Source: an uncultured bacterium
GTDB lineage: Bacteria; Oederibacteriota; PGYV01; CAWJRG01
Reading direction: 5' to 3'
Assembly (NCBI GenBank): GCA_963845185.1
Contig: CAWJRG010000010.1
Span: 608,001 to 672,000, forward strand
DNA: 64,000 bases
Below the pieces are notes generated by a model, which saw only the letters and a program-made list of their open reading frames with translations, did not search any database and had not been told where the DNA came from. The translations under genes were made by a program, and so were the position numbers. Shown piece by piece: positions 5,124-53,147 of this stretch; the first letter of the stretch is position 1, and every line of letters starts with the position of its first letter.

Positions 5124-5351
5124 TCAGTCTGCTTCGTTTATTATTTTTACATCAAAATCCGGGTATTTTACCCTGTCTTCCAGAAACTCTTTCATGGCAA
5201 TAAGGGTAGGTTTAAGTTTCCTGTCTTCGTCTTCGGTTTCTTCCGGATTTTCCCTTATGTATTTTGCCCTGCTCGATACCGCCAGCACGGCTGCGTATTT
5301 ATTCGGGATTTTTTTCTCTATGTCTTTTATAGTAAATTCCATTTTTTTCAT
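5124..5351 (-). CDS. rpoZ: RNA polymerase omega subunit
   Basis: KIPNKYAAVLAVSSRA and KPTLIAMKE motifs; conserved gmk-rpoZ-coaBC order; GGAGG upstream of ATG 5351. Confidence 0.88.
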   Translation of the reverse strand: MKKMEFTIKDIEKKIPNKYAAVLAVSSRAKYIRENPEETEDEDRKLKPTLIAMKEFLEDRVKYPDFDVKIINEAD

Positions 5352-5373
5352 TTGCCTTACCTCCAAGTCTAAA

Positions 5374-5934
5374 TTATTTTTGACGCGCTACTATTTCTTC
5401 AAGGCGCATGATACTCTTCTTTAAATCTCGGTTTACAATAATATAATCATATTTTGTTGTTTCTTTCAATTCTTTTTTCGCCAGTGCCAGCCGCCTTCTT
5501 ATTTCCGGCATTTTGTCCGTTTTTCTTTTCAAAAGCCTTTTTCTAAGTTCCGGCAGCGACGGAGGCTTTATAAAAATTGTCACGCAGCTTTTTATCTTTT
5601 TCCTCATGCTGGCCGCGCCCTGGACATCTATATCCATTATGACATTTTTTTCCTTTTTTGTATTGCCAAAAACTGCTGAACGCAAAGTCCCGTAAAAATT
5701 ACCCACCACATTCGCATATTCAAGAAATTTTCTTTCCTTTATGAATTTCTTGAACTTTTTACAGGTAAAAAAATGATAATCCCTGCCGTCAACCTCGCCT
5801 TTCCTTTTTTTGCGGGTGGTGACTGAAACAGACAGGACAAAATCCTTTTTATGTCTTTTCAAAAATTCCTTTATTATTGTTGTTTTACCCGTGCCTGAAG
5901 GCGCGGATATGACAAATACAACGCCCTGTTTCAT
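5374..5934 (-). CDS. gmk: Guanylate kinase
   Basis: SAPSGTGKTT P-loop, SVSVTTR, GEVDGRDYHF, DIDVQGA. Confidence 0.97.
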   Translation of the reverse strand: MKQGVVFVISAPSGTGKTTIIKEFLKRHKKDFVLSVSVTTRKKRKGEVDGRDYHFFTCKKFKKFIKERKFLEYANVVGNFYGTLRSAVFGNTKKEKNVIMDIDVQGAASMRKKIKSCVTIFIKPPSLPELRKRLLKRKTDKMPEIRRRLALAKKELKETTKYDYIIVNRDLKKSIMRLEEIVARQK

Positions 5935-5956
5935 TTCGGCTTTTTGCTCCTTTGTT

Positions 5957-6832
5957 TCATTCCATGTTTTGCGATTGTTCCCTGATTTTATCGATATTTT
6001 CTTTTATTGCTATGGCGCTGTGCACAATATCGCAACTGCCGATTTTGCTCGTTATGGTATTGGCTTCCCTGTGCATTTCCTGCGCAATAAAATCAAGTTT
6101 TTTCCCGATTAATTTTTCGCTTTTAAGCATACTGAATGCCTGCTTTAAATGTGATTGCAGCCTGACTATTTCTTCGGTTATATCGTATTTGTCGAGTACC
6201 TCAACTATATCAGCACGCAAAAAATTCTGGTTTTCCTGCGCGGATTCATGTCCTGCAAAGACTGTCTTAATCCTTTCCCTTGCCTTTTCCATATATTGGT
6301 CCTTAAACTTTTCGTACATTTCTTTTATTTTAAGTGCTTGTTTTTCTATTAGGACGAGCTTTTTCCCAGTATCAGCCGCAATGTCCTTGCCTTCCTTTTC
6401 TTTCATTTTATTAAAACTCAGCAGTGCTTTCGCAAAATTCTTTTTCACCCTTGCCCAGTCGAATATTTCCCTGTCAACCGCGTCTTCGAGCGTTATTATG
6501 CCGTCAACGTTGGAAAATATTATATTTAAAGGTATGTCCTTTTTATATTTCACCGACCCGAGAAGTTTTTTCAGGGAATCATAGGTGCTTTTAAAAAGTT
6601 TTTTATTTAAGACAACTTTTTTCTCAAGTTTTGCCTTGTTAAGGTTGACATACACATCCACTTTTCCCCTGGTTATATTGTCGTTCAAATATTTATAAAT
6701 TAGCGGCTCGATAGCAAAAAATTCTTGGGGCATATGCAGAAAAATTTCCTTATACTTTGAGTTCAGTCCTTTTATTGTTATGGTGTATTTCAGGGTCTTG
6801 CAAGATCCCCATCCGGTCATGCTTAAAGGCAT
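5957..6832 (-). CDS. yicC: YicC/YloC family endoribonuclease
   Basis: N-terminal SMTGWG, DITEEIVRLQSH, GKKLDFIAQEMHREANTITSK, IREQSQNME; lies upstream of gmk. Confidence 0.93.
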   Translation of the reverse strand: MPLSMTGWGSCKTLKYTITIKGLNSKYKEIFLHMPQEFFAIEPLIYKYLNDNITRGKVDVYVNLNKAKLEKKVVLNKKLFKSTYDSLKKLLGSVKYKKDIPLNIIFSNVDGIITLEDAVDREIFDWARVKKNFAKALLSFNKMKEKEGKDIAADTGKKLVLIEKQALKIKEMYEKFKDQYMEKARERIKTVFAGHESAQENQNFLRADIVEVLDKYDITEEIVRLQSHLKQAFSMLKSEKLIGKKLDFIAQEMHREANTITSKIGSCDIVHSAIAIKENIDKIREQSQNME

Positions 6833-6845
6833 TAATCTTCCTCCT

Positions 6846-7595
6846 TTATTTTGAAGCCGCGACGCAGGCTATTATCAATCCTATTAATGCTATGCCGCCT
6901 ACGGCAAGCACGGCGTAAGGTGATTTTGAAGCCTGCACAAAGACGTTGTCTTCGCCCTGGTCGTTTTTAAGGGAATTGATTTCTTTTTTCAGCCTGGCAA
7001 TTTCAATATCATTGTTGTTAATGCTTTTTTTCAGCACCCCGAGAATATCGTCCCAGCCCTGCATTTTATCCATTTTTTCCTTCAGGCTGTCCTGCATGTC
7101 TGTGAAATCATCCATGTATTTATCTGTTTTTTTCTTGTTCTCCGCATATCCGGAATTCAGGGTGCTTAAATCATCTTTCAATTTGCTCACATCATCCGCA
7201 ATATTTGCTATTTCTATCGTCTTCTCTTCAAGCCTTTTTAAATTATCCTGAATTTCATCTATTCTTTTGTTCAGTTCTTTTATTTGCTCGTCGGTAACAG
7301 CGTTGGTTTCTTGGTTTTTGGTTTTTACATCGGCAGCAGCATTGGTTTCCTGTTTCTTGGCTTTTACTTTTGTTTCCTTTTTTGCCTCGCCCGCAGTTGG
7401 GGTGACCTGGTTTCCGGCACCGCTTTCTCCTGTTCCGGCATTGTCACTGTCGTCGGATATTGCGTTTCCCTGTGCTTTAAGCGCCGCGTCTGCATCCGCG
7501 TCTTTTGCCGCAGGCGCAGCAAAACAGAAATTTACCTGGGCAAAAACAAAAATAATAATTAAAAGGTAAATAAAATTATTGGTTTTGTGTTTCAT
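6846..7595 (-). CDS. Hypothetical exported coiled-coil protein with C-terminal membrane anchor
   Basis: Signal peptide from MKHK (7595), low-complexity linker, long heptad-rich region, C-terminal hydrophobic helix. Confidence 0.65.
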   Translation of the reverse strand: MKHKTNNFIYLLIIIFVFAQVNFCFAAPAAKDADADAALKAQGNAISDDSDNAGTGESGAGNQVTPTAGEAKKETKVKAKKQETNAAADVKTKNQETNAVTDEQIKELNKRIDEIQDNLKRLEEKTIEIANIADDVSKLKDDLSTLNSGYAENKKKTDKYMDDFTDMQDSLKEKMDKMQGWDDILGVLKKSINNNDIEIARLKKEINSLKNDQGEDNVFVQASKSPYAVLAVGGIALIGLIIACVAASK

Positions 7596-7866
7596 TTTTC
7601 TTTGCGACTTTTTCATATATGAAATCAAACAGCGAAACAAAGGTAAATCCCCCGCCGAATACCGCGAAAATAAATACAAATACATTTTCCATTACAGGGT
7701 CCATCTGGGCTCCGGTTGTAAAAAACACAATTATTGAGAGCAACACGAGAAACCCCCAAAAAAACAGGTTTATATAGAAATAGTCTTTAAGGGTAAAGTT
7801 TTCCTTATTGGCTTCTTCTTGTTTTTCTTTTTGGTCTCTTTGTTCCTTGTTTTTATTTTTCGCCAT
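7576..7866 (-). CDS. Hypothetical small two-TM membrane protein
   Basis: Charged N-terminus and two hydrophobic helices; GAGGTGG upstream; in operon. Confidence 0.6.
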   Translation of the reverse strand: MAKNKNKEQRDQKEKQEEANKENFTLKDYFYINLFFWGFLVLLSIIVFFTTGAQMDPVMENVFVFIFAVFGGGFTFVSLFDFIYEKVAKKNETQNQ

Positions 7867-7970
7867 AATCCACCTCTTTATCTGCTAAGTATTGTTTATT
7901 AATTATCAAACATTTATTTGTATATTTTACTATCAACATTCAACAATCAACCATCAACATTTTTTATTTA

Positions 7971-9257
7971 TTATTCCCTGCCTATACCCGTGTATTCGAA
8001 TCCGGCTTTTTTAACATCCTTTGGCTCGTAAATGTTCCTGCCGTCGACTATTGCCGGGTTTTTCATGAGCTTTTTGATTTTTTTAAGGTCAAGCTCCTTA
8101 AACTCTTTCCACTCGGTCAAAACCACAAGACAATCCGAATCTTTAGCGGCCTCATAAGGGCTTTCCACATATTTTACTCCCTTTAACACCTTTTTTGCGT
8201 TTTCAACAGCCACCGGGTCGTAAGCTTTTATCCTGCACCCTTTTTCAAGCAGCGCCGCCATGACATCTATTGCCACAGCTTCCCTTATATCGTCGGTATC
8301 TGGCTTAAACGCGATCCCCAGTATCCCAACCTGCCTGCCCTCCAGTGTCCCCATGATATTTTTTATTTTATTAACGACTATTTTTCTCTGCTGTTTGTTT
8401 ACTTCCATGACAGCGCTCAGCAAAATCGGCTCGTAATCCTCATTCCTTGCCATGCACCTGAGGGCAGCGACGTCCTTGGGGAAACACGAACCGCCGTATC
8501 CTGCGCCGGCATTTAAAAACATTTTCCCTATTCTTTTGTCCAGCCCCATGCCGCTTGCTACCATCTCAACGTCGGCCCCCACCCTCTCGCAGATGTTCGC
8601 TATTTCGTTTATAAAAGAAATCTTCATAGCAAGGAAAGTATTAGAAGCGTGCTTTATCATTTCAGCGCTTCTTATGTCGGCTATTATTATTTTCGCGTTA
8701 AGCGGCTTGAATATTTCCGCTACTTTTTCCGCGGCTTCCTTCCGCTTTGCGCCGATAACAACCCTGTCAGGGTTCATAAAGTCATGTATAGCGCTTCCTT
8801 CCCTGAGGAACTCGGGACAGGAAGCAACATCAAATTTGTATTTCCCTTTTGAGTATTCGTCTATTATGCTTTCTACAATATCCCCCGATCCCACCGGAAC
8901 GGTTGATTTATCCACAATTATTTTGCTTGAGTTCATGTTTTTCCCAATCTCTTTGGCAACCGACTTGACGTAAGTCAGGTCCGCCTCGCCGGTTTCCGTG
9001 GGCGGCGTTCCAACTGCAATAAATATTATGTCTGATTTAACAACACCGTCCTTAAGGCTGGTAGTAAAAGTGAGCCTTTTTTTGTTTCTCTTCACAAGTT
9101 CTTCAAGCCCTGGCTCGTAAATAGGAAGTATATTTTTCTTTAAATTTTGTATTTTTTTCAGGTCAATATCTACGCATATCACATTGTTTCCCAGGTCAGC
9201 CATGCATGCGCCTGTAACCAGCCCAACATATCCTGTCCCTACTACACAAATGCTCAT
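7971..9257 (-). CDS. ugd: UDP-glucose 6-dehydrogenase
   Basis: GTGYVG Rossmann motif, KSTVPVG, PEFLREG, catalytic GGSCFPKD, FKPDTDDIRE. Confidence 0.96.
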   Translation of the reverse strand: MSICVVGTGYVGLVTGACMADLGNNVICVDIDLKKIQNLKKNILPIYEPGLEELVKRNKKRLTFTTSLKDGVVKSDIIFIAVGTPPTETGEADLTYVKSVAKEIGKNMNSSKIIVDKSTVPVGSGDIVESIIDEYSKGKYKFDVASCPEFLREGSAIHDFMNPDRVVIGAKRKEAAEKVAEIFKPLNAKIIIADIRSAEMIKHASNTFLAMKISFINEIANICERVGADVEMVASGMGLDKRIGKMFLNAGAGYGGSCFPKDVAALRCMARNEDYEPILLSAVMEVNKQQRKIVVNKIKNIMGTLEGRQVGILGIAFKPDTDDIREAVAIDVMAALLEKGCRIKAYDPVAVENAKKVLKGVKYVESPYEAAKDSDCLVVLTEWKEFKELDLKKIKKLMKNPAIVDGRNIYEPKDVKKAGFEYTGIGRE

Positions 9258-9427
9258 TTCTTAAATTACCTCCGTCTTAGATGAATGCGACCGGCACTTC
9301 ATACCGATAACAGCAAAAATATTATCATAATCCCGGCGTTTTTACAATTTAAAAGTATCCCCCTTATTTATTACGGTCAAAGTGGCAATATATCGCATTT
9401 TTATCGAGTAATTTTTAGTAAACTGCC

Positions 9428-9462
9428 AAAAATACAAAGCCCGGAGCTTGCGGCCCCGGGCT
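9428..9462 (-). terminator. Intrinsic terminator after the 9489-10817 gene
   Basis: Minus strand AGCCCGGGGC-CGCAA-GCTCCGGGCT followed by TTGTATTTTT. Confidence 0.65.
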
Positions 9463-9488
9463 CTTAAATATATATTAAACCAATTATG

Positions 9489-10817
9489 CTACTGTGTCTG
9501 GACAGGCTGGTTTGTCTGGTCTTCTTCAGAAGTTCCGGGATTATAAGGATTGCCATTGCTGTCAAACATATCAAAAGAACCGTCATTGAGCCTTAAGACC
9601 ATTTCAAGAGGCCTTCCGTTGTTTGAATTCGAAAACAATACATCCTGCACGCCTGAAGCAAGGTACACCGGGTTAAATGCCGGCGGGTTTGCCGTGTCAT
9701 ACAGGAAAGCATCCTGGGTATCAGCAATCACTTTTACTACCCGGGTATTATCCGGGCTTGTGAAAGTCTGCATATCGGTACTGTCCGGCACGGTCACTGC
9801 AACATTGTCCTCTGCCGAGTTGACCGGTATATAAAAGGCATTGTCATAACAGTACAGGTCCCCTACGTGATAAGGGTCCTGCCACCACCAGAAACCGTCG
9901 TTCCAGAAGCACCAGCGGTCGTAATCCGCATCATACCACCACCAGCGGTTGTTGAAATACCGTGTCCAGAAATAATTGCTGCCCACATACCAGCCGTACC
10001 AGTGGTAGCCCCAGTTGTCTATGTAGTGGCAATAATTGAAATTATCATCCTTATGCCAGTAGTAATGGCCTGTGTCTGTCTCGGTTTTATTAAATCCGTT
10101 AATCTTGCCCTGCCAGTCACTGCTACTAACCAGGGACATTTGTGTCCGGACAACGCTGTCGTTAAAATGCCTGTAAGAAACCGCTGCAACTTTAAGCGGC
10201 TGGTTGTCAACGCCTGTTTTTGGATAGCCGACTATTGAATGCTCCCTGTCTGTATGGATAACCTCTTCCCTGTTTGTAATATAACCCGGCTCTACTGTCA
10301 CTCCGAGTTTCTGCAATTTTTTACGCACATAATTCGGTTCATAAGGGTGATGGTGTATCACGCTTGTGGCTTTAATCCCTGAAGTATTGACAATCGGCAT
10401 TTGATTTATCACGCCGATATTTTTAATTTCATTTGGGTAATTGTTTACTTGAGGGGCCACGGCCTGCTGCTGTACCTGCGGTTTGGTCTGTACAGGCGGC
10501 TTGTTTTGGACAAAAGGTTTGGTCTCGTTTGCCGGCGGCAATTGCAGTCTGCTGTAAGTCAATGCCTGATTTTCCTGCTGCTGTACAGGCTGCTGTTGCT
10601 GCTGCGGCTGCTGCGATGGAAAATTCCGGTTATGCCCGCCGCTTGATGGGTGGCTTATATTAATTACCACCTGTTGGTGTATTGTGTTGGCCTGTACCGA
10701 GGGCGGGGGCGCTTCCTTTTTATCTTTATCTTCCTGCAAGTCGCGCTGGTCCCGTGCCATGACATACAAGGCAGATACCAAAATTACCGTTAGAACCAAT
10801 ATTGTCAAACGTTTCAT
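9489..10817 (-). CDS. Hypothetical secreted protein with Gln/Pro-rich linker and Trp/Tyr-rich segment
   Basis: GAGGTG then MKRLTILVLTVILVSALYVMA signal peptide; no family recognised. Confidence 0.7.
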   Translation of the reverse strand: MKRLTILVLTVILVSALYVMARDQRDLQEDKDKKEAPPPSVQANTIHQQVVINISHPSSGGHNRNFPSQQPQQQQQPVQQQENQALTYSRLQLPPANETKPFVQNKPPVQTKPQVQQQAVAPQVNNYPNEIKNIGVINQMPIVNTSGIKATSVIHHHPYEPNYVRKKLQKLGVTVEPGYITNREEVIHTDREHSIVGYPKTGVDNQPLKVAAVSYRHFNDSVVRTQMSLVSSSDWQGKINGFNKTETDTGHYYWHKDDNFNYCHYIDNWGYHWYGWYVGSNYFWTRYFNNRWWWYDADYDRWCFWNDGFWWWQDPYHVGDLYCYDNAFYIPVNSAEDNVAVTVPDSTDMQTFTSPDNTRVVKVIADTQDAFLYDTANPPAFNPVYLASGVQDVLFSNSNNGRPLEMVLRLNDGSFDMFDSNGNPYNPGTSEEDQTNQPVQTQ

Positions 10818-42353: not shown

Positions 42354-42431
42354 AATTACCATACAATGTGCAATACTATACAATTTGTATGGTAATTATT
42401 TCTTGACAACAGTTACCATACAATATATGCT
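42354..42431 (+). promoter_or_regulatory. sigma70 promoter with three TTACCATACAA operator boxes
   Basis: TTGACA 42403-42408, 17 nt, TATGCT 42426-42431; boxes at 42356 (forward), 42385 (reverse) and 42413 (forward). Confidence 0.75.
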
Positions 42432-42465
42432 AATTCAAATAATGTATGATAACGAGGTGAGTACA

Positions 42466-42783
42466 ATGGCAGTAATTAAAGCTATATTAAGGGAAGAACT
42501 TCGTAATGCTGTTGTTATGAAGTCAGAATATGAAAAAGCCTTATCCAACCTTCCTGAAGGGGCGCTTTTTAAAAAGATGATTAAAAACAGGGAATACTGG
42601 TACCTGATTTCAAGGAAAGATAAAAAGGTCCATTTTAAATATATGGGGAAGCTGGATAAAGACAAAATTAATGAATATAACGAATCAAAGAAACTAAGAG
42701 CAAAATACCGTAGCTTGCTGTCCCAGGTAAAAATTCGTATCAAGTATCTTAAAGGAGTTTTACGTGGAAAAAGAGAAATATGA
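42466..42783 (+). CDS. Small basic protein, putative antitoxin/DNA-binding partner of the nucleotidyltransferase
   Basis: GAGGTG RBS, 105 aa, LPEGALFKKMIKNREYWYL...KYMGK; overlaps the next gene. Confidence 0.75.
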   Translation: MAVIKAILREELRNAVVMKSEYEKALSNLPEGALFKKMIKNREYWYLISRKDKKVHFKYMGKLDKDKINEYNESKKLRAKYRSLLSQVKIRIKYLKGVLRGKREI

Positions 42784-43453
42784 GTTGTTTACCGAAGTAT
42801 TAAAAAGGTTCGACAAGTCCGGCGTTTTAAGTGATCTTATAATAGCCGGCAGCTGGAACATCTTTCTTTACAGAGACTTTTTTGGCAAAGATTTCGAAAA
42901 AATACCACAGTTAAGAACGACAGATGTGGATTTTTTGGTTCCAAATCCTTCAAAAATAATCCATAAATCCAATATACCGGAAATTATGAAGGACCTTGGA
43001 TTTATAGTTAAATTTAAAGGAAACGAAGGTTTCGTCAAACTTATTCATCCCGACCTCACAATTGAGTTTATTGTGCCGGAAAAGGGCAAAGGAGTTGATA
43101 ATAAACCTGTTTCTTTGCCTGGGTTAGGCATAAATGCCCCTGCATTAAGGTTTATGGATATCCTTTATGAAAATATAATAACAGTAGTGTACGATGGCAT
43201 AAAAGTTAATATTGCCCATCCTGCGGCATTAGCTTTTCATTATTTGATGATTTATCCAAGACGTAAAAACAAAGAAAAGGCTGAAAAGAATCTTGAACAT
43301 GCGGCTTCTATACTTAAATTAATGATTGAAAAAGACAAACAAAAAGAAACCCGTGATATTTTTAACAAACTGCATAAAAACTGGAAAAAAGAAATAATTG
43401 AATTAATGAAAAAAAAAGACCTTGCTAATATTGTGGCGGACTTAAAGCTTTAA
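42764..43453 (+). CDS. Pol-beta-fold nucleotidyltransferase (GSU2403/AbiEii-like)
   Basis: IIAGSWN and RTTDVDF motifs, C-terminal helical RRKNKEKAEKNL segment. Confidence 0.78.
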   Translation: MEKEKYELFTEVLKRFDKSGVLSDLIIAGSWNIFLYRDFFGKDFEKIPQLRTTDVDFLVPNPSKIIHKSNIPEIMKDLGFIVKFKGNEGFVKLIHPDLTIEFIVPEKGKGVDNKPVSLPGLGINAPALRFMDILYENIITVVYDGIKVNIAHPAALAFHYLMIYPRRKNKEKAEKNLEHAASILKLMIEKDKQKETRDIFNKLHKNWKKEIIELMKKKDLANIVADLKL

Positions 43454-44169: not shown

Positions 44170-44604
44170 TTATTTTTTCCCGTTCAGGTATTTTGCCAAC
44201 GATTCGGCAAGCAGCCGGTTCCTTTTGACATTATTTTCCAAAGCCTGCGGTTCCGGCTCCCCGCTTTCCTTTTTAAAATCCTCGATAAGGGTCAGTTTCG
44301 ACCCCTGGCCGTGTTTTTGCACTGTGAAAATATTCATGGCGTATGTAATCCCCGGCATGCCGCTTCTCGTATTGACTACTGTCATGCTTTCCGGGATGAG
44401 AATCCTTTCTGATTTCATCGACACCGGGATGCCGTTAAAAACACCTTTTACCGTATATTGTATTACGCGCTCATCCTGGAAGGATACTATATTTTCGATT
44501 CCAGGGCTTGCTCCGGCTTTCTTTAGAAAGTTTATATCCGAAACTTCATTAAAAACGGCTTCCGGGGGCTGATCCAATAAAATTTCATCCTTTATTACGG
44601 GCAT
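44170..44604 (-). CDS. SRPBCC/START-fold family protein
   Basis: N-terminal EILLDQPPEAVFNEVSD pattern; AGGAGG RBS; TTGACA-17-TATATA promoter at 44638-44666. Confidence 0.6.
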   Translation of the reverse strand: MPVIKDEILLDQPPEAVFNEVSDINFLKKAGASPGIENIVSFQDERVIQYTVKGVFNGIPVSMKSERILIPESMTVVNTRSGMPGITYAMNIFTVQKHGQGSKLTLIEDFKKESGEPEPQALENNVKRNRLLAESLAKYLNGKK

Positions 44605-45203
44605 ATTTGTCCTCCTAAATGGAATTTTAGGGTGCTTTATATACTACTAAACAGAAAAATTGTCAATAAAAAACCCCTCTGGTAAAAAAAGTTGAGCGGG
44701 ATAGATTCGGACTTCTAACATAAAATGATAGTGCAGTTACATATGTTTCAGTCTTTTTTCTACTTTATGTTTCAAGATCAAGGGAAAAACGAGGTTTATT
44801 GCGGATGGGGCCCATGTATTAGTCATTTCATTCCGGAGCCCTAAATCCTGTACCACTCATTTCGTCTGGGTGCAGGACTTGCCCGAGTTATAGTGAGTTT
44901 TAACCTTGAACTTGAGCTACAACGAATAGGTGAGAGGAGAATGTTTTAGAGTTTAATTTATAATCTAAATGTTCTAATAATACTTTCAATAATTTGTTTT
45001 ATGATTGATATTTCCATCCTCTTATCTTTGAATAAGCTTTAAATACTGGATCCGAGAATCTATAGCATTTATTACGAATTTTTATTAATATTGGGGATTT
45101 TGGATCTGCCGTTAATTCCTTCATTAGCTGCGAAGGATTTGTGATTCCCATTTCTTTTACGGTAGCATAAATACTTTCTGTATCCATTTCATCATCAGTA
45201 GTA

Positions 45204-46477
45204 TGGAATGAACCCCTTCGTTTGGACACTCGGATTAGAACAAACCGGCCTGTTCCTGTAGTTTAGTTTCAAATTCTACCGGTGGAACGTAGCCTATTGC
45301 CGAATGCAATCTTTTTTGATTATACACCTCCTCTATAAAAAATGGAATCCTTTTCAAGACGTCATCGATAGTTTTATAATCCCACATATAAACTTCTTCA
45401 CATTTAATTGTTTTCATAAAACTCTCGGCTCCGGCGTTGTCGTACGGGTTGCCTTTGCGCGACATGCTGATAGTAAATTCGTGTTCCTTCAAGATGCCAA
45501 CGTAATCGTTGCAGGCATACTGCACGCCGCGGTCTGAATGATGGACTACGCCTGTTCCGGGCTTACGTCTCTCTATGGCCATTTTAAGCGCTCCTATAGC
45601 AAGGTCGGCATCAAGATACAGCGAAATATTGTAGCCTATGACCTTTCTTGAAAAAGCGTCCAGTATCACCGCTAAATACACGAAGCCAAGCAAAATTCTG
45701 ATGTATGTTATGTCTGAACGCCAGAGCTGGTTTAACGTTGTCAGGATCATGTCCTTCGCTATATTCGGGTAAATCCTGAACGGGTGATTGGAGTCTGTGG
45801 TTTTTACCCACTTGCGTTTGTACACCACCAAAAGCGAGCTTTCACGCATGATTCTTTGTACTCTTTTGTGGTTTACAATCACACCTTCACGGTGAAGCTG
45901 TTTTGTAACCCGCCTATATCCATATCCTGCAAACTCAAGAACTATCCGTTCAATTTTATCTCTTAAATCACAGTCCACCTTTAATTTTTTCTGGTTTTTT
46001 TCTTTGGGTTTGTAGTAATAACTGCTTCGGCTCAACCCAGTCATTTTGCACCATCTTTTAACTTCTCCTTGCCTTCTTCGCCCGGATATGGCCCGCCGAA
46101 TAAACTCTCTCTTTTCTTTGGTGCTTTTGCAAGGTGTTGACAGGCTTTTTTTAAAAAGTCATTGTCCATAGTCATCTGCCCAAGCTTGCGTTCAAGCTCC
46201 CGGACATGTTCTTTAAGCCCCTCGACTTCATCAGGTTCATTGCCGTATTTGCCACGGGCATAATTTTGCTTCCAATTCTGGAGTAATCCCCCTGATATTC
46301 CATATTTCCGGCTTATCTGCGCCGGCGTACTTACCTTGGATAGCAATTCTTCTACTACTTGTATCCTAAATTCTTTGTCAAAAACTCTCTTTGGTTTCAT
46401 AGATGGTCTCCTTTGCCTTATCAGGCCAGGTCTCCGTCTATTCTAACACATGTGTCCAGTCTCTTGGGTGCAGCCCA
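45204..46477 (-). mobile_element. IS3-family insertion sequence, 1274 bp, intact
   Basis: 26-bp imperfect TG...CA terminal inverted repeats (TGGGCTGCACCCAAGAGACTGGACAC / TGGAATGAACCCCTTCGTTTGGACAC); 3-bp target duplication GTA at 45201-45203 and 46478-46480. Confidence 0.95.
45235..46400 (-). CDS. IS3 transposase OrfA (46041-46400) / OrfB (45235-46044), joined by a -1 programmed frameshift
   Basis: OrfA HTH; OrfB DDE motifs WRSDITYI, HHSDRG and DNAGAESF; slippery A7 at 46146-46152 with the -1 frame open into OrfB; ATGA overlap. Confidence 0.93.
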
Positions 46478-47566
46478 GTATCTGAAAATGCTTTTAATAA
46501 TATTTCTCGTTGTGGTGAATTTTTAACAGCAGCGTGATAAATATCTTCGTATATAGTCTTTAGTTTACCTTCTGAAATTTCTTTGACTAAAATATCAATT
46601 GTTGATTTATTAATTGTTCCTTGCCCTCTTTCATATGCCAATAACATGGCTTCTCTTCCTAATAAATGAACGAAATAAGGAAAACCTTCACTTTTATTAA
46701 TAATTATTTTTTTAACATCTTCATCAAATAAAATTTTTTTAGAAATATGATGCTCGGCTTTCGTTATAATTTCCATTAATTCTGTTTCTGGCATTCTTTC
46801 AATTTCGATAGATTCAATTTGTCTACCAACAGAAGAATGATCTTCAATCAACTCAGTTATTGATGATGCGATACCAATTATTCCAAATTTTACAAATTCT
46901 GACGAACAAGCTTTTACTAACGATGAAAAACCTTTTTTATCTTTTAAAGTGTCAAATTCATCAATTAAAATAAAAATTCCTGTTTTATCTTGGTTATCCT
47001 TTTGAACCGTACCTAACATTTGTCTAAATTGTTGTGTTAAATCATCCGACATATATGTTTTAAATGTTTTTTCCTCTTTTCCCGAACCATTTATTTTTGC
47101 TCCAAAAAAATTAGCGCCTCCATCTATTCCTATTGTTTTTTTAAAACTTTCTAATTTTATATCACCAGATTTTGTTAAATTAAATAAAGGAGGATTCTTA
47201 TCATCGCCAAATAAAATTCTTTTCAATAAATCAAAAACGTTTTTAATTGAACTATCTATTTTAATGTAATATGTAATAAACTTGAATCCATTATTAGGGA
47301 TAAAACGATCTAAACTTAATGTTCTTGGCAATTTATTATTTCCAGAAGCAATTAGGGATAGTTGGTGTCCTATTGAAGATTTTCCAACACCTCTTAAGCC
47401 ATATATAGCAAGAAAAGATCCGGGATTGCTTAGACAAATTATACCATTACGTATTTGTTCCTTTCTTCCTACAAATAAATCAGGATTTTGTATTTCTTGA
47501 GTAGGCGAAAAAGCTTCGTTAATTATTTTAATATCCATAGTTCTCCTTTTTAAAAATTTTTAATAT

Positions 47567-49969
47567 TTAATCATTTATTAATTTAAAAATATAAGAATAA
47601 ATATTATTCAACGGTCCTGAAATTTTATTATTATCAAGAAAAGAACTTACAATATTCATATAATTTACGTTAATTTTATATAGAATATTTTCATCTTTAG
47701 TTGATATAGTTTTTTGATCTAACGTAATTATTTGCAATTTAATAAATTCTTCAAAAATTTTTTCAATTTTAGGAATATTTTTTATACAACCAATAATTAT
47801 ATTTATTTTTTTTACTGAATGATAAACCTTTCCCGTTCTAAATTTTCCAAGTATTTGATTAATCCATTTTTTAACGTCATCTTCATAAACAGGTACTTCA
47901 TTCTCAGCTAATATTTTCATTAAACATGCTTTAGAATCTTCATCAATTTTTTCTACTTTTGAAAAATTTTTTTTAAATGATAATCTTTTAAGTCCTTTAC
48001 AGTTTTTAAATTCAATTCTTCCAGTAAATTCTCCATTTTCGAATAATGTATTTTCATTGAAATCACATTTATCAAATACTACGTCTTTAAAATTACAATT
48101 TATAAAAGTAACATTGAATAAATTAATTTTGGTTATTGTTCCTTTGATAGACATATTTTCAAATTTTCCATCAAACACAAATAATATATCTTCTATAATA
48201 TCCTCCGATTTTCTTTCAGTGCTTTTAAAATTTGTTGATAGATATTGGATTAAATTAAAGAGTGCGGGTGAATAATAATTTCGCCAATCTTTATGTCCTC
48301 TTAATTTATCTGATAAAATTTTTATTCTATTTATTAGAGCTTTATATTCTAAATTATTAATTTTATTTAATCTAAAAATTTCATTTAAATTCCCAAAATA
48401 TTCAGTTAACCCCGAATGTAATTTTTCAGAGAATTTTTTTAAATACTCATATTCAGATATTTCTTCTTGAAACAAAATATCGTAAAAAACCAAACACTCG
48501 AAAAATGGTCCTGCAAAATTCCACCTAAATTCATAATTATTTTGTTTATTTTTTTTAATAAGAGGATGGCTAATAAATGAACGGAATCTATTTTTGTCTT
48601 TTGGATTTTCTTTATCAATATTTGAATAAATCCATATAAAATCTTCGGAAAATGAATTTCCAATATATTCTCTATCTTTAACAATATTTTTAAATATTTC
48701 CATTTGTGTAGTAGAATCTAACCCTATTCCTTGTTTTAATGAATTACGATCACAAACTTTTTTTAATACCGCATACATAATTCCTAAGTTAGAAACACTT
48801 AATTCTGCATTATTAGTATCTTCTGCTGCTAAACAAATCATTTCTAGCATATAAGGATTAATTTCAATCTTACTTTTATTATCATAAGCATCTATAACGC
48901 TTCTAGCAAGTTTTTCGGCACGCTTACGTTGTATTTCATTTGTCAAATCAGGTGAAGATTGAATAAAATCAATCATTTGTTTTTCATTAAAATCTTTTAA
49001 AGCAAATATATCTATATTTTTCTCTATTAATTGCATAACTTCACTACTTTTAACATCTTTTATTGCTTCATCCCAAAAAACATCTCTTGTTGTAAGTAAT
49101 ATTCGACCAGTATCAATTGTCTTATTAAGACCGCTGACAAGAGAAGTAATTTTCTCTAAAACATCTTGTGCATTAAAAGAATGATAAAACATTGTACATA
49201 ACTCATCAAATCCGTCGAAAATTATTAAAAAACTACCATTATTCAAAAAAGTTTCTAAAAATTCTGTAGATTGTCTTTTAAATTTTAATTGAACCAATGA
49301 TTCAGATAGAATATCTTCAATCGCAATGGGGGACTTATCTAATAAATTTTTCCATTGGGAAGAATCAATAAAGATTGGAAGAATTTGTCTATTTTCGAAA
49401 TTTATTGCATAATTAAAATTAATTTTTTCACATAATCTAGTTTTTCCACCACCCCCAGCTCCCAATATTACTGCCACATTTCTTTTACCATTGATCAACC
49501 ATTCATTAATAAAATAATTTAATGCATTATCTTTTGATTCTTCATGCGAATCATGGCGAAAATAAATAAGAGCTTGGGATGTATATTTAGGCTCGTTTAA
49601 GTTTTCAAACAAAGATTTATCAATATTCCTTTTTATTATATCAAACGAAAATTGTCTAACAGTCCTAATTGTTGTAGCACTAAGACTTTTTTTAATACTT
49701 TCCAATTTCATTTGAATTTTGCTTGAATTTTTACCACTAATTAATGGTGAAGAATTTTGGATTAAAATATTTAATTTTCTTTCATGAGAATTTTTTTCTA
49801 AGGCATCATCAAGTGACGTATTATTAGCATCAGAATCAAAAAAAATAAATTTTATTTTTTTAATTTCAGCATAATCATAATATTCACATTCATATAATTC
49901 CCATTGCTTTCCTTGATTAATAATAGCAACATTTTCATATGCTTGTCTTAATTCGTTTATTATTGACAT
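47567..49969 (-). CDS. NACHT/STAND NTPase with C-terminal pentapeptide-like repeats
   Basis: Walker A GAGGGGKT, Walker B LIIFDGFDE, ILLTTR; FNVTFINCNFKDVVFDKCDF repeats; very AT-rich. Confidence 0.85.
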   Translation of the reverse strand: MSIINELRQAYENVAIINQGKQWELYECEYYDYAEIKKIKFIFFDSDANNTSLDDALEKNSHERKLNILIQNSSPLISGKNSSKIQMKLESIKKSLSATTIRTVRQFSFDIIKRNIDKSLFENLNEPKYTSQALIYFRHDSHEESKDNALNYFINEWLINGKRNVAVILGAGGGGKTRLCEKINFNYAINFENRQILPIFIDSSQWKNLLDKSPIAIEDILSESLVQLKFKRQSTEFLETFLNNGSFLIIFDGFDELCTMFYHSFNAQDVLEKITSLVSGLNKTIDTGRILLTTRDVFWDEAIKDVKSSEVMQLIEKNIDIFALKDFNEKQMIDFIQSSPDLTNEIQRKRAEKLARSVIDAYDNKSKIEINPYMLEMICLAAEDTNNAELSVSNLGIMYAVLKKVCDRNSLKQGIGLDSTTQMEIFKNIVKDREYIGNSFSEDFIWIYSNIDKENPKDKNRFRSFISHPLIKKNKQNNYEFRWNFAGPFFECLVFYDILFQEEISEYEYLKKFSEKLHSGLTEYFGNLNEIFRLNKINNLEYKALINRIKILSDKLRGHKDWRNYYSPALFNLIQYLSTNFKSTERKSEDIIEDILFVFDGKFENMSIKGTITKINLFNVTFINCNFKDVVFDKCDFNENTLFENGEFTGRIEFKNCKGLKRLSFKKNFSKVEKIDEDSKACLMKILAENEVPVYEDDVKKWINQILGKFRTGKVYHSVKKINIIIGCIKNIPKIEKIFEEFIKLQIITLDQKTISTKDENILYKINVNYMNIVSSFLDNNKISGPLNNIYSYIFKLIND

Positions 49970-50432
49970 TATTTTAACTTTAATTTTTTGTCATAAAAGA
50001 TTTGTTCATGATTTTTACTCATATTTTTCACCTCTAATTAACATTCGCATATCAAAAGTAGTTTAAAATTCACAGTTTTAAGCATTTAAATTATACGCCT
50101 CATTGTTTATCGCGTCAATAATATTTGAAATCTTATAAAAAATATTAATGATTTTAATTAAAAATTGACAATTCAAACCAATTTTCCATTTCAAATTTGG
50201 GATTCGAATGCCAAATCCTATACCAGCCGTTTACCCATGTACCAGTCTTTTCATTCCGGTACATGGCCCTAAACCCGAACCATAAGTGAATGGTTTAGGG
50301 CTACTTCGTCCACCATACATTTTTAACAATTTCCAATTCTCAATTCCCAATTTTCAATGAAAAATTTTTGTGTCCTGCACATTTCGTTTACAAACAAAAT
50401 CATTTAATATGTTAAAACCCTTACCATTATAT

Positions 50433-50975
50433 TTATTGAGGAGATTTGTATAATTCCAATAATGTACTTACTGCTTTATCATATTTTGGAGTTGTAGTCC
50501 CTACAACCTTTGTGCTTATAGTTGGTGTCGCATTTGCAATAGCTACGGTTTGCATTATTGCAAATCCTTTTGCAATTTTTGCGACAGCCAGGCTTTGGGA
50601 ATCGATAAAATTTTGCAGGGCAAGTACACCTTTGAGAGCCTCATCGCTGCACGGGGTCATACGCAGTGTTTCGAGCGCGCTTTTTAACTTAAGTTTCAGC
50701 CGGATTGAATCCTGATCCAGTGTTTGCTGAAAATTAGTGATTTCATTCTTTGTATTAACAGAAATTTGGCCGCTGCCCAGTACATTTGCTACATTTGAAA
50801 CTGCCAATGCCACGGAAGTATCGTACCCTTGAGTATAATCAGCAAAATCTTTTGAAACATCTATGTCTCTTACAGGCTCTCCGTTCGCGCATCTAATTGG
50901 GCATCCACAGCATGAACTTATTACTAATACAGATACTAATAATAACAGTAAACATAAAAATCGTTTTGTATTCAT
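50433..50975 (-). CDS. Hypothetical lipoprotein
   Basis: AGGAGG before ATG 50975, MNTKRFLCLLLLLVSVLVISSC lipobox. Confidence 0.65.
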   Translation of the reverse strand: MNTKRFLCLLLLLVSVLVISSCCGCPIRCANGEPVRDIDVSKDFADYTQGYDTSVALAVSNVANVLGSGQISVNTKNEITNFQQTLDQDSIRLKLKLKSALETLRMTPCSDEALKGVLALQNFIDSQSLAVAKIAKGFAIMQTVAIANATPTISTKVVGTTTPKYDKAVSTLLELYKSPQ

Positions 50976-51668
50976 TATTACCCTCCTTTTACTTTTTTTA
51001 TATGCCTTAAACTTCCTCTTTATCTTTCCGCGGGCACAAATTCCATTCAGTAATTTGTATTTGGCATTTGGGATTCGAACGCCTAATGCCAAACCCCTAA
51101 CAATGGTGCTACTCCAAATAATTGCATTTTTACAATTCTTCTTTGTCTTTCCACGGGCACGAGGAATAAGGTCTCATCGTGAATGAAAAATCGCAGGACG
51201 TGTCAAAAACCGGTGATTCCCTTTTAAATCCCAGTACTTTTAATCTTGTATTGATTTCAAGGGCATTATTATTATTCATCTGTTTAAGCCTGCAGAAACA
51301 TACCGTAATCAGCTCATGCCTGCCGAAAGTCTTTAAGGATTCTTTTTTCTTTGCTATATTTTTGCAATTCATTTGTACACTTTACCCCTGCAGGCGGACT
51401 CCGCCTGCTGTATAACTAACTGTATCCCTTAATATTTGTTTTGTCAAGGTGAAAGCACCCCCCGGGTGTTGCAGGGATAAATAAAACAAGGCAGGCCAAG
51501 GGGGGTTTGGAGGGGAATGGGGGATAAAGGCCTGCCCTGTGTATTCATCTCTAAATTTTTATCTTTCGCATTAAATGATACATTAATAATTCCGGTATTT
51601 CAAGAAACAAAATCAACTTTTCATACTCTTTTTTCTTCCACGGGATTTAACTGATGATTGCCCGCATA

Positions 51669-53147
51669 TTATTTCAGTACAATAAATTTATCAACCCTGC
51701 TAAAATTTGTTGTCTTTCCTTTTTGCTTGTATGCTATAAAATATATGCCGCTTGCAAGGTTTTGCACGTTGATTTCAACGGTATTTACCCCTGCGTTCAA
51801 ATTCTGGCTAATTTTTCCTATCAACCTGTATGCCGCTGTATAAATGGTTAATTCTATATTGGCGTCTTCTGTGATGTTAAATACATATTTAAGCTTGTCT
51901 TTTGCAGGGTTTGGATATATCAGCGACTTGCCAGGCGCAACTGCCAGGGGAGGAGGGGTCGGAGCCGGGCATAGCGGTTGCGCCGTCCCTGTCAGCCATG
52001 CCAGAACATCCGCGCCGTGGCACGAGGTGGGCGTATAGCTCCAATCCTTTATGAGTGTGGGCCCTGAATACGGGTTCAGGTCCCATGCAGTCGCGTTGTA
52101 CATGTAATTCGCGTTATTGCCGCCGTCAAGCCATGAAATAAAGCTGGACTCATACGGGTTGCACCCGCTGTCGTCCCAGCCGCAGCAGTTGCCTTCGTTG
52201 TTTGTGCCGCCCATTAAAGACCCGAATTCCCCTACTATGACGCAGTAACCGGCGTTCACTGCCACCCCTACATACTGGTCCCAGCTTGCCGCGTCATTGT
52301 TCCCCGGGTTGCCGTAATATATATGCGCGTCATAAGCTATGCCGTAACCTGTCAGGGTGTTGCCGGTGTTCCTGTCCGTTATCGGATTCGACGGTACTCC
52401 GGTCAGGTCATGCGCCCAGACCAGGCCGTCCACAATGGCTATATTCTTCGCACCTGTATCGCGGATAGTCTCTACCATAGTCTGGTATCCCGGGCTGACA
52501 AAACTGCCGGTCCAGCCGCCGTTCTGCCATGTGGTCAACGGCATATAAGTCGGCTCATTATAAAGGCCGAAAAGCACAGCAGGGTTATTGCCGAATGTCA
52601 CGGCAAGGCTCTGCCAGAACACCAGGGCATTCATGTCACACATGGCCGGCCCGGTTGCCTGCACAGAAGTGGAAGTACCCCATGTGCCAAGGCCTGACCA
52701 GTGCAAATCCAGGATCACATAGCAGTTGAGTGCCGACGCAGTGTTTACCATATCGGCAACAAGGGTTCTGTAATTGCTCTGGTTTGTCAAATCCTGCGTG
52801 GTAGAGGAAGATGTTACGCCGTTACTGTAGCCAAACCAAAAATCCTGGTTTAAGGGTATCCTTACGATATTGGCTTTCCATGTGTTCACTGCCACGGTTA
52901 TTGACTGTGTCATATCCCCGCCTGGCCCGCTTGCCAGGCCTTTGCCGTCCGCTTCCCATTCCAGCCCGTCCACGTTTACGCCCACGAGCCTTACAGGGCA
53001 GCCGGTCGCCGCGTTTACAAAGTATTTTCCCGACACCGCAAGCTGCGGAGGCGCCGCAATAAGGACTGTATTTATAAGGAATATGCATGATAATGCTGTG
53101 AAGGTTATAAATATAATCTTTGGTACTAGATTAATGCTCTTATACAT
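51669..53147 (-). CDS. GH5 glycoside hydrolase (endoglucanase-like) with T9SS-like C-terminal domain
   Basis: LVGVN, NIVRIPL, YVILDLHW, LYNEP, VGEFG; C-terminus IYPNPAKD...LASGIYF. Confidence 0.9.
   Translation of the reverse strand: MYKSINLVPKIIFITFTALSCIFLINTVLIAAPPQLAVSGKYFVNAATGCPVRLVGVNVDGLEWEADGKGLASGPGGDMTQSITVAVNTWKANIVRIPLNQDFWFGYSNGVTSSSTTQDLTNQSNYRTLVADMVNTASALNCYVILDLHWSGLGTWGTSTSVQATGPAMCDMNALVFWQSLAVTFGNNPAVLFGLYNEPTYMPLTTWQNGGWTGSFVSPGYQTMVETIRDTGAKNIAIVDGLVWAHDLTGVPSNPITDRNTGNTLTGYGIAYDAHIYYGNPGNNDAASWDQYVGVAVNAGYCVIVGEFGSLMGGTNNEGNCCGWDDSGCNPYESSFISWLDGGNNANYMYNATAWDLNPYSGPTLIKDWSYTPTSCHGADVLAWLTGTAQPLCPAPTPPPLAVAPGKSLIYPNPAKDKLKYVFNITEDANIELTIYTAAYRLIGKISQNLNAGVNTVEINVQNLASGIYFIAYKQKGKTTNFSRVDKFIVLK

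Follow-up and report, generated by a model that had tools for sequence, protein, structure and literature searches.

Two adjacent genes were analysed on the minus strand of contig CAWJRG010000010.1 (assembly GCA_963845185.1), from an uncultured bacterium of the phylum Oederibacteriota. One encodes an 800-amino-acid (aa) NACHT protein with pentapeptide-like repeats, and the other an ORC/Cdc6-like ATPase that is split by an insertion sequence (IS). Both lie in a 64,000-nucleotide (nt) stretch, contig positions 608,001 to 672,000, hereafter termed the window; coordinates are those of the window unless a locus is named. Judging from the distribution of their homologues, the two genes are a local juxtaposition and not a conserved two-gene unit. 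We consider it probable that they are two independent, horizontally acquired one-gene modules that lie side by side and are probably co-transcribed, the NACHT protein being a single-chain NLR-like NTPase. Its most likely role is that of an anti-phage NLR working as a single chain. The two genes are arranged as follows (ORF, open reading frame; pLDDT, predicted local distance difference test).

47567-49969, minus strand: NACHT gene, 800 aa, intact; ORF with a Pfam NACHT match, from a family of ~780 aa; AlphaFold model with pLDDT 84.6
46478-47538, minus strand: N-terminal part of the ATPase, residues 1-354; ORF that includes both Walker motifs (A and B) and the arginine finger, covering positions 3-359 of the family profile
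44999-45203, minus strand: C-terminal part of the ATPase, last 66 residues with the winged-helix end; covers profile positions 358-423 and fits the family consensus for the conserved C-terminus

Co-occurrence of the NACHT and ATPase genes

No NACHT-family gene was found upstream of the ATPase gene at any of 37 ATPase loci, 34 of them from genomes and metagenomes and 3 from Bacteroidota genomes. In the 34 loci, the neighbours on both sides of the ATPase were heterogeneous. A large NTPase encoded upstream of the ATPase in locus L017 was considered as a NACHT counterpart and rejected; only the P-loop is common to the two. From the other side, the ATPase was absent from all four NACHT-family loci (0/4), each of which holds a full-length or near-full-length member, and from the whole of five NACHT-bearing genomes (0/5); the same profile found the ATPase in the genome of the window (positive control). 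A sample of 401 genomes contained NACHT-like genes in 8, the ATPase in 4, and both in none. The genes that begin 14-40 nt past NACHT relatives in two loci (L074 and L075) were unrelated to the ATPase and, by Pfam, to each other. The initial annotation had proposed a two-ATPase sensor/helper defence system and had stated that this would be refuted if homologues of the two genes did not co-occur. The homologues did not co-occur from either side (0/37, 0/4, 0/5 and 0/401), so that the proposal is not supported.

Structure of the NACHT protein

NACHT NTPases of the STAND class are characterised by a Walker A motif GxxxxGK[ST] and a DGxDE-type Walker B motif, with a sensor arginine that follows the next strand. 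The ORF is intact and, as initially annotated, encodes 800 aa; Pfam NACHT matched its residues 165-328 above cut-off (E 5.7e-9; 36.5 bits vs. a cut-off of 26.7). The protein has Walker A at residue 170, Walker B of the DGFDE type at 251, TTR at 293, and an SHPL histidine at 467. In an alignment of 40 family members, all of which matched Pfam NACHT at E ≤ 0.01, residues G175, K176, D252, G253, D255, E256 and R295 were invariant, and the winged-helix H468 was invariant or nearly so. The Pfam profile, both Walker motifs with the sensor arginine, and the NLR-type domains with a winged-helix histidine place the protein in the NACHT STAND class. Foldseek with the 800-aa model gave NOD2, NLRC4 and NLRP3 as top matches; a wide structure search with the same model covered residues 111-525 only. 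The family profile also reached NLRP1 and NLRP3 by sequence (E 1e-7). The following parts were distinguished.

49565-49969, minus strand: N-terminal domain, residues 1-135; secondary structure in the model alpha-beta-beta-beta-alpha-beta-alpha-beta-alpha
48470-49522, minus strand: NACHT module, residues ~150-500; nucleotide-binding, helical and winged-helix domains
47960-48169, minus strand: short pentapeptide-repeat beta-helix, residues ~601-670; strand ladder at 607-666 in the model
47570-47959, minus strand: C-terminal alpha/beta domain by the secondary structure of the model, residues 671-800; presumed sensor

The N-terminal ~130 aa, already described as unrecognised, matched nothing in Pfam, NCBIfam or the PDB profiles. 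Its conserved residues are G8, W23, S46, A48, S73, L108 and P132. The alpha-beta-beta-beta-alpha-beta topology is compatible with a PD-(D/E)xK (Mrr-like) nuclease; however, the domain has no conserved D/E/K columns and no PDB profile match. A language-model comparison returned an Mrr_cat cluster as look-alike (0.83), a score that shuffled sequences often reach. When the domain profile was compared with PDB sequences, the best match was protein OT3 (E 0.007), which was judged not meaningful. Comparison by hhalign of the N-domain profile with the TIR-NACHT relative of locus L076 gave no match; the genome search had aligned model positions 37-698 there.

Pentapeptide-like repeats towards the C-terminus, another element of the initial annotation, find support at the family level and in the model. 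Over residues 615-666, the window protein scored 19.0, 17.5 and 12.8 bits against pentapeptide Pfam models whose cut-offs are 38, 27 and 20.2, respectively. Pentapeptide_3 was matched by 29 of the 40 family members at E ≤ 0.01 (best E 2e-7), the model has a strand ladder, and the family profile matched the pentapeptide protein 2w7z weakly (E 0.0044). DNA mimicry, which had been put forward for these repeats, is unsupported: the stretch is short (about residues 605-666) and, in relatives, comes after NACHT and before a WD40 propeller, in the manner of a connector. For the C-terminal part of the protein, the language-model atlas gave a score of 0.76 and no family.

Distribution and neighbourhood of the NACHT family

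An exhaustive search with the NACHT protein yielded 400 representatives at E ≤ 1e-3, 208 of them at E ≤ 1e-10. Most are 770-800 aa long, and many aligned from about residue 10 to about residue 795 with 22-31% identity. Such end-to-end alignments at similar length indicate a real family of fixed architecture. A cluster look-up of 10 relatives returned no names. In PADLOC-DB 2.0.0, no family matched the NACHT protein at E ≤ 0.1, and among the 40 aligned members any one model was matched by at most 6, always weakly. No PADLOC model claims the protein; the initial annotation could not assign the two-gene architecture to a named system.

The family was not found in 98 other genomes of the window's own phylum, which is consistent with horizontal acquisition. 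It was likewise not found at E ≤ 1e-30 in 401 genomes of the phylum of genome G099, a weak negative, since only two candidates per genome were scored. Searches by tblastn gave no match for the NACHT protein in plasmids and phages, or for a phage-borne relative (locus L065) in phages.

Gene context was examined at four loci, three genomic (L074, L075 and L076, all from Bacteroidota genomes) and one on a viral contig (L065). In L074, the NACHT gene follows genes for a GmrSD-type nuclease, a type IIG methylase/nuclease and a T5orf172-helicase, and precedes a gene 40 nt on for a 691-aa protein without Pfam or PADLOC match, as well as a PLD/DrmC-like gene. In L075, a methylase and a 1474-aa helicase are encoded before the NACHT gene, and the gene for a 389-aa DUF4062 protein (8441-9610 of that locus) begins 14 nt past it. 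The genes following NACHT in L074 and L075 could be variable partners, or the spacing could merely reflect dense packing. In L076, a TIR-NACHT relative adjoins a type III-like Res helicase and a methylase. Thus, defence genes surround the NACHT-family member in 3/3 genomic loci. L065 is a lambda-like IMG/VR contig. Its full-length member (hhalign probability 100, E 1e-71, 744 columns) is flanked by the large terminase gene and the portal gene, a typical moron position. A separate 282-aa pentapeptide-repeat protein is encoded before it, and the two genes occupy 5124-8385 of that locus.

Distant relatives in three further Bacteroidota loci (L069, L070 and L072, in genomes G855, G555 and G819) have the order TIR-NACHT-pentapeptide-WD40. 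Compared with the window protein, these relatives show both ends to be, by domain order, modularly swapped around a common NACHT-pentapeptide core. This order suggests that the N-terminus is an effector slot and the far C-terminus a sensor slot, the pentapeptide segment coming after the NACHT helical domains. The phage-sensor reading in the initial annotation is therefore upheld in part: an NLR-like sensor is plausible, given the defence context at 3/3 loci and the phage moron slot, whereas the sensor/helper pairing is not retained.

The ORC/Cdc6-like ATPase

At E ≤ 1e-3, a word-index search with the ATPase gave 220 clusters. Identity was 50-67% for the best 120, most of which were 420-430 aa long. 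In the alignment, G48, K54, D194, E195 and R240 were invariant, Walker B read DEFD, and a C-terminal block was strongly conserved. A full-length homologue with 66% identity (P0007) was modelled with pLDDT 83.7. Foldseek with this model placed SSO1545 (2fna), Drosophila ORC1, PAB2304 (2qen) and Cdc6 at the top over the whole chain, with E values of 1.8e-9 to 2.8e-8 and template-modelling (TM) scores of 0.44-0.57. The model has an AAA+ core in which strand 2 is followed by a helical insert, and the arginine finger, the lid and a winged helix at the C-terminus were also recognised, which makes the protein ORC/Cdc6-like at the fold level only.

By sequence, the ATPase stayed below the Pfam cut-offs for ATPase_2 (PF01637; 19.2 vs. 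33.2 bits), AAA_16 (18.2 vs. 32.6) and nSTAND1 (23.1 vs. 27.1); some homologues have precomputed matches to ATPase_2, AAA_16 or nSTAND1. No NCBIfam model matched, no PDB relative was found by sequence profile at E ≤ 0.1, and in PADLOC-DB 2.0.0 there were just P-loop-level matches (mad8, E 0.003; mad3, E 0.022). On the evidence of the homologue model, the ATPase is an AAA+ protein of the ORC/Cdc6-like type, compact and equipped with a winged helix. The initial annotation had called it a STAND/AAA ATPase; it is not a STAND protein with sensor repeats, and its gene is usually solitary.

Members of the ATPase family came from Cyanobacteria, Brevibacillus, Chitinophaga, Flavobacteriales, Marinifilaceae, Parcubacteria, Gammaproteobacteria and a Hodarchaeales archaeon. 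In three Bacteroidota genomes the gene was solitary and AT-rich among housekeeping genes. At locus L081, a single ATPase gene (7036-8355 of that locus) with a guanine-plus-cytosine (GC) content of 0.37 lies beside urocanase in a region of GC 0.65-0.68, and is followed by a hairpin and then by an array of 42-nt host repeats. Other solitary positions were beside ribonucleotide reductase and beside H+-pyrophosphatase. The borders of solitary ATPase genes were searched for repeats, and no mobile-element ends were found. As judged from sequence comparison, the family is strongly conserved, promiscuously transferred and, elsewhere, usually solitary.

When PADLOC was run on the neighbours of 21 ATPase loci, a known defence gene adjoined the ATPase in 4: type I restriction, type IIG restriction, TIR-STAND with an HmaC-like ATPase, and PDC-S41. 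Pfam identified YgjP-like genes and an integrase among the other neighbours; further ones were plainly housekeeping. This neighbour evidence for a defence role is suggestive, not decisive. The family profile had no match in IMG/VR viral contigs, and the ATPase had 8 distant relatives (23-32% identity) in plasmid records. The genome search also returned an ATPase copy with one in-frame TAG (L080/L083, G535:C11), which may be a pseudogene or a match extended upstream of the start.

Insertion of an IS3-family element in the ATPase gene

45204-46477, minus strand: IS3-family element of 1274 bp with TG...CA ends; orfA (46041-46400) and orfB (45235-46044) overlap

The transposase matched NCBIfam transpos_IS3 (NF033516) with 284 bits vs. 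a cut-off of 160, and the frames matched Pfam HTH_Tnp_1 and then rve. The ends were fixed by 100% identity of four copies in the genome, namely that in the window and those on contigs C5, C8 and C9 of the same genome (G000). The target duplication is 3 bp (TAC), its second copy opening the C-terminal part of the ATPase. The element shares with IS3-family insertion sequences its two overlapping frames, its TG...CA ends, the 3-bp duplication and the presence of several identical copies, and it does not differ from them in any notable respect. Its four identical copies indicate that it is currently active.

The interrupted ATPase ORF has 366 aa, of which the final 12 are IS-derived. The family profile covers positions 3-359 in the N-terminal part and 358-423 in the C-terminal part (E 1.8e-23 for the latter). 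This continuity across the IS indicates a clean in-frame split, 354 + 66 = 420 aa, and points to a recent insertion into an otherwise intact gene. The restored length of 420 aa, and the position of the gene 28 nt after the NACHT gene, are as initially annotated. Having lost its last 66 residues and gained 12 IS-derived ones, the copy in the window is, from its predicted product, probably inactive. The NACHT gene was left undisturbed by the IS.

Locus organisation and base composition

Both genes are on the minus strand throughout: the NACHT ORF (47567-49969) is followed by a 28-nt gap and then by the ATPase ORF, which starts at 47538. The gap contains a GGAGA ribosome-binding site, and no minus-strand terminator-like site was found across 44600-51700. 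Upstream of the NACHT gene, the following two features were noted.

50090-50118, minus strand: candidate promoter-like site, TTGACG, 17 nt, TATAAT; 11/12 by consensus scan, the best of the region, ~120 nt upstream of the NACHT start
49969-50022, minus strand: 17-codon upstream ORF read from the sequence; it has a GAGGTG ribosome-binding site of its own, and its stop codon and the NACHT start codon overlap (TAATG)

Promoter-like sites in the region were not more numerous than in shuffled sequences, and the site at 50090-50118 is therefore a candidate only. The 17-codon ORF could be a leader peptide, a means of translational coupling, or a chance ORF within AT-rich DNA. A search of sequencing runs listed two DNA runs, with 5-7% of the sequence words, and no RNA run.

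GC content was 24.0% in the NACHT gene, 27.8% in the N-terminal and 31.7% in the C-terminal part of the ATPase, 43.4% in the IS, 45.2% in the left flank and 50.0% in the right flank. The low GC of both genes reported initially (24-32% vs. 45-50% in the flanks) is thus confirmed. The AT-rich islet is probably horizontally acquired; it contains no integrase, replication or conjugation genes. Its flanks code for glycoside hydrolases and carbohydrate-binding proteins, and a type-9 secretion sorting domain is present in some of these. The ORFs at the edges of the islet (44170-44604, minus strand, 144 aa; 50433-51092, minus strand, 219 aa) had no Pfam, NCBIfam or PADLOC match. Nearby, at 42385-43453 (plus strand, GC 0.33), a small ORF overlaps by 20 nt the gene for a 229-aa NTP_transf_8 nucleotidyltransferase (PF12281, E 3.6e-20). 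The layout of this pair is reminiscent of a toxin-antitoxin or abortive infection (Abi) pair; no PADLOC or NCBIfam match was obtained.

Discussion

Two independent one-gene modules would operate as follows. By analogy with NLRs and with tested bacterial NACHT (bNACHT) proteins, the C-terminal domains of the NACHT protein would sense a phage-derived cue. Nucleotide exchange would then lift the autoinhibition held by the winged-helix histidine and carry the protein from an ADP-locked to an oligomeric NACHT state. Oligomerisation would cluster and activate the N-terminal ~130-aa domain as the effector, a role suggested by its position, which TIR occupies in relatives. The ORC-like ATPase might bind DNA via its winged helix and act alone; our guess is that it is a DNA-binding one-gene defence or selfish cassette. 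It is also conceivable, although rather unlikely, that the ATPase is a self-sufficient, uncatalogued DNA-binding AAA+ switch that crosses bacterial phyla and archaea and, by being loaded onto DNA that is foreign or replicating, protects either its host or itself. In a bolder variant for the other gene, NACHT-pentapeptide proteins would have no effector of their own and would recruit interchangeable downstream partners, the ORC-like ATPase among them.

Several points weigh against two independent modules with a single-chain immune NACHT protein. The NACHT-side context comes from a small number of loci, four. The common strand, the 28-nt gap, the low GC and the lack of an intervening terminator fit an operon, and the unrelated genes 40 nt (L074) and 14 nt (L075) past NACHT leave room for a variable partner acting in trans. 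The N-terminal domain has no recognisable enzymatic fold or conserved catalytic residues, and a conserved acidic/lysine set was not found in its family alignment. With defence adjacency in 4 of 21 loci and three loci among housekeeping genes, a defence role of the ATPase is weakly grounded. Both families were characterised here by sequence, models and gene context alone.

The operon-like layout, together with the ribosome-binding site in the gap and the similar low GC of the two genes, would suit a lineage-specific true pair. An effector-less NACHT protein would signal to the downstream gene, here the ORC-like ATPase as helper or DNA-directed effector, and the IS would have killed the system. 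The missing catalytic residues in the NACHT N-terminal domain and the same-strand genes within 40 nt and 14 nt of NACHT relatives argue in the same direction. However, we regard such a pair as very improbable: the pairing was absent from all 37 ATPase loci, all 4 NACHT loci and all 401 genomes, the downstream genes in L074 and L075 are related neither to the ATPase nor, by Pfam, to each other, the ATPase is solitary in several genomes, and bNACHT genes are rarely in operons (Kibby et al., bioRxiv 10.1101/2022.07.19.500537). Alternatively, neither gene would be immune: the NACHT protein would be a STAND ATPase serving in signalling or regulation, the ORC-like ATPase would act for a now decayed mobile element, either as a regulator that binds DNA or as a replication factor, and the islet would be a foreign remnant. 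PADLOC matched neither protein, no recognisable effector is present, the ATPase often lies among housekeeping genes, and STAND proteins with winged helices can act as transcription regulators; SSO1545 is reportedly mentioned in a paper on the mycobacterial regulator IniR. This explanation seems improbable in view of the defence genes at 3/3 genomic NACHT loci, the member in a phage moron slot, the TIR domains of NACHT relatives and an islet devoid of integrase, replication and conjugation genes. In addition, one would expect to see a conserved target gene beside a regulator, and the ATPase has none.

A further explanation, possible but in our view doubtful, is that the ATPase alone makes up a new cassette of one gene, serving defence or addiction and passed between phyla, and that the NACHT gene is a mere neighbour in a defence islet. 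It would account for 50-67% identity across distant phyla and an archaeon, for lone AT-rich genes within GC-rich housekeeping regions, for the defence neighbours in 4 of 21 loci (type I, type IIG, TIR-STAND and PDC-S41), and for the complete catalytic motifs of the family; moreover, ORC/Cdc6-clade ATPases recur in BREX-type systems, according to PMC12839542. Against it, the ATPase has no effector domain, IMG/VR gave no match and plasmids hold only 8 distant relatives (23-32% identity), most neighbours are not defence genes, and such strong sequence conservation is unusual for an arms-race sensor. We prefer two independent modules with an NLR-like NACHT protein. Close spacing within an AT-rich islet is not sufficient to call a defence system, as both families travel separately. 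Each gene is a lead on its own: the first is an NLR architecture of NACHT and pentapeptide repeats with unmatched end domains, which occurs in a phage as well, where its gene is placed between those for terminase and portal; the second is a highly conserved solitary ORC/Cdc6-like ATPase, with no model in Pfam (above cut-off), NCBIfam, PADLOC or PDB, whose spread across phyla needs explaining.

Comparison with known systems

The ATPase homologue shares its whole-chain fold with ORC1/Cdc6, SSO1545 (2fna) and PAB2304 (2qen): the AAA+ core, the helical insert, the lid and the C-terminal winged helix. In contrast to ORC1/Cdc6 initiators, the ATPase is encoded by a bacterial gene that stands alone and is horizontally mobile, and it is not an origin-adjacent replication initiator. 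BrxC and BrxD of BREX also belong to the ORC/Cdc6 clade; however, BrxC has 1200-1300 residues and acts in a six-gene system, whereas the window ATPase has 420 residues and no conserved partner.

PADLOC includes models for the Avs (AVAST) STAND sensors. The window NTPase differs from these sensors in being of the NACHT clade, in having no TPR-like sensor and in matching no PADLOC model. From the animal NLRs NOD2, NLRC4 and NLRP3 it differs by the absence of LRR, CARD and PYD, and identity to them is 12-17%.

The closest resemblance is to bNACHT proteins, which protect against phage, and whose domain key and supplementary discussion give pentapeptide repeats as one sensor-type repeat (Kibby et al., bioRxiv 10.1101/2022.07.19.500537). 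The window protein shares with the bNACHT proteins described there a central NACHT module, the Walker motifs, the winged-helix histidine, a single-gene organisation, and the presumed order of N-terminal effector and C-terminal sensor; it differs in that the N- and C-terminal domains of its family match no named domain. The Figure S3 legend of that preprint (bioRxiv 10.1101/2022.07.19.500537) lists LRR, HEAT, REase, TIR, TM, NNH1 and NCH1 for the tested set and no pentapeptide architecture, so that, going by this legend, the layout of the window NACHT protein apparently lies outside that set. Should the NACHT protein prove protective against phage, the NLR toolkit would gain a new effector in its N-terminal domain and a new sensor in its C-terminal domain.

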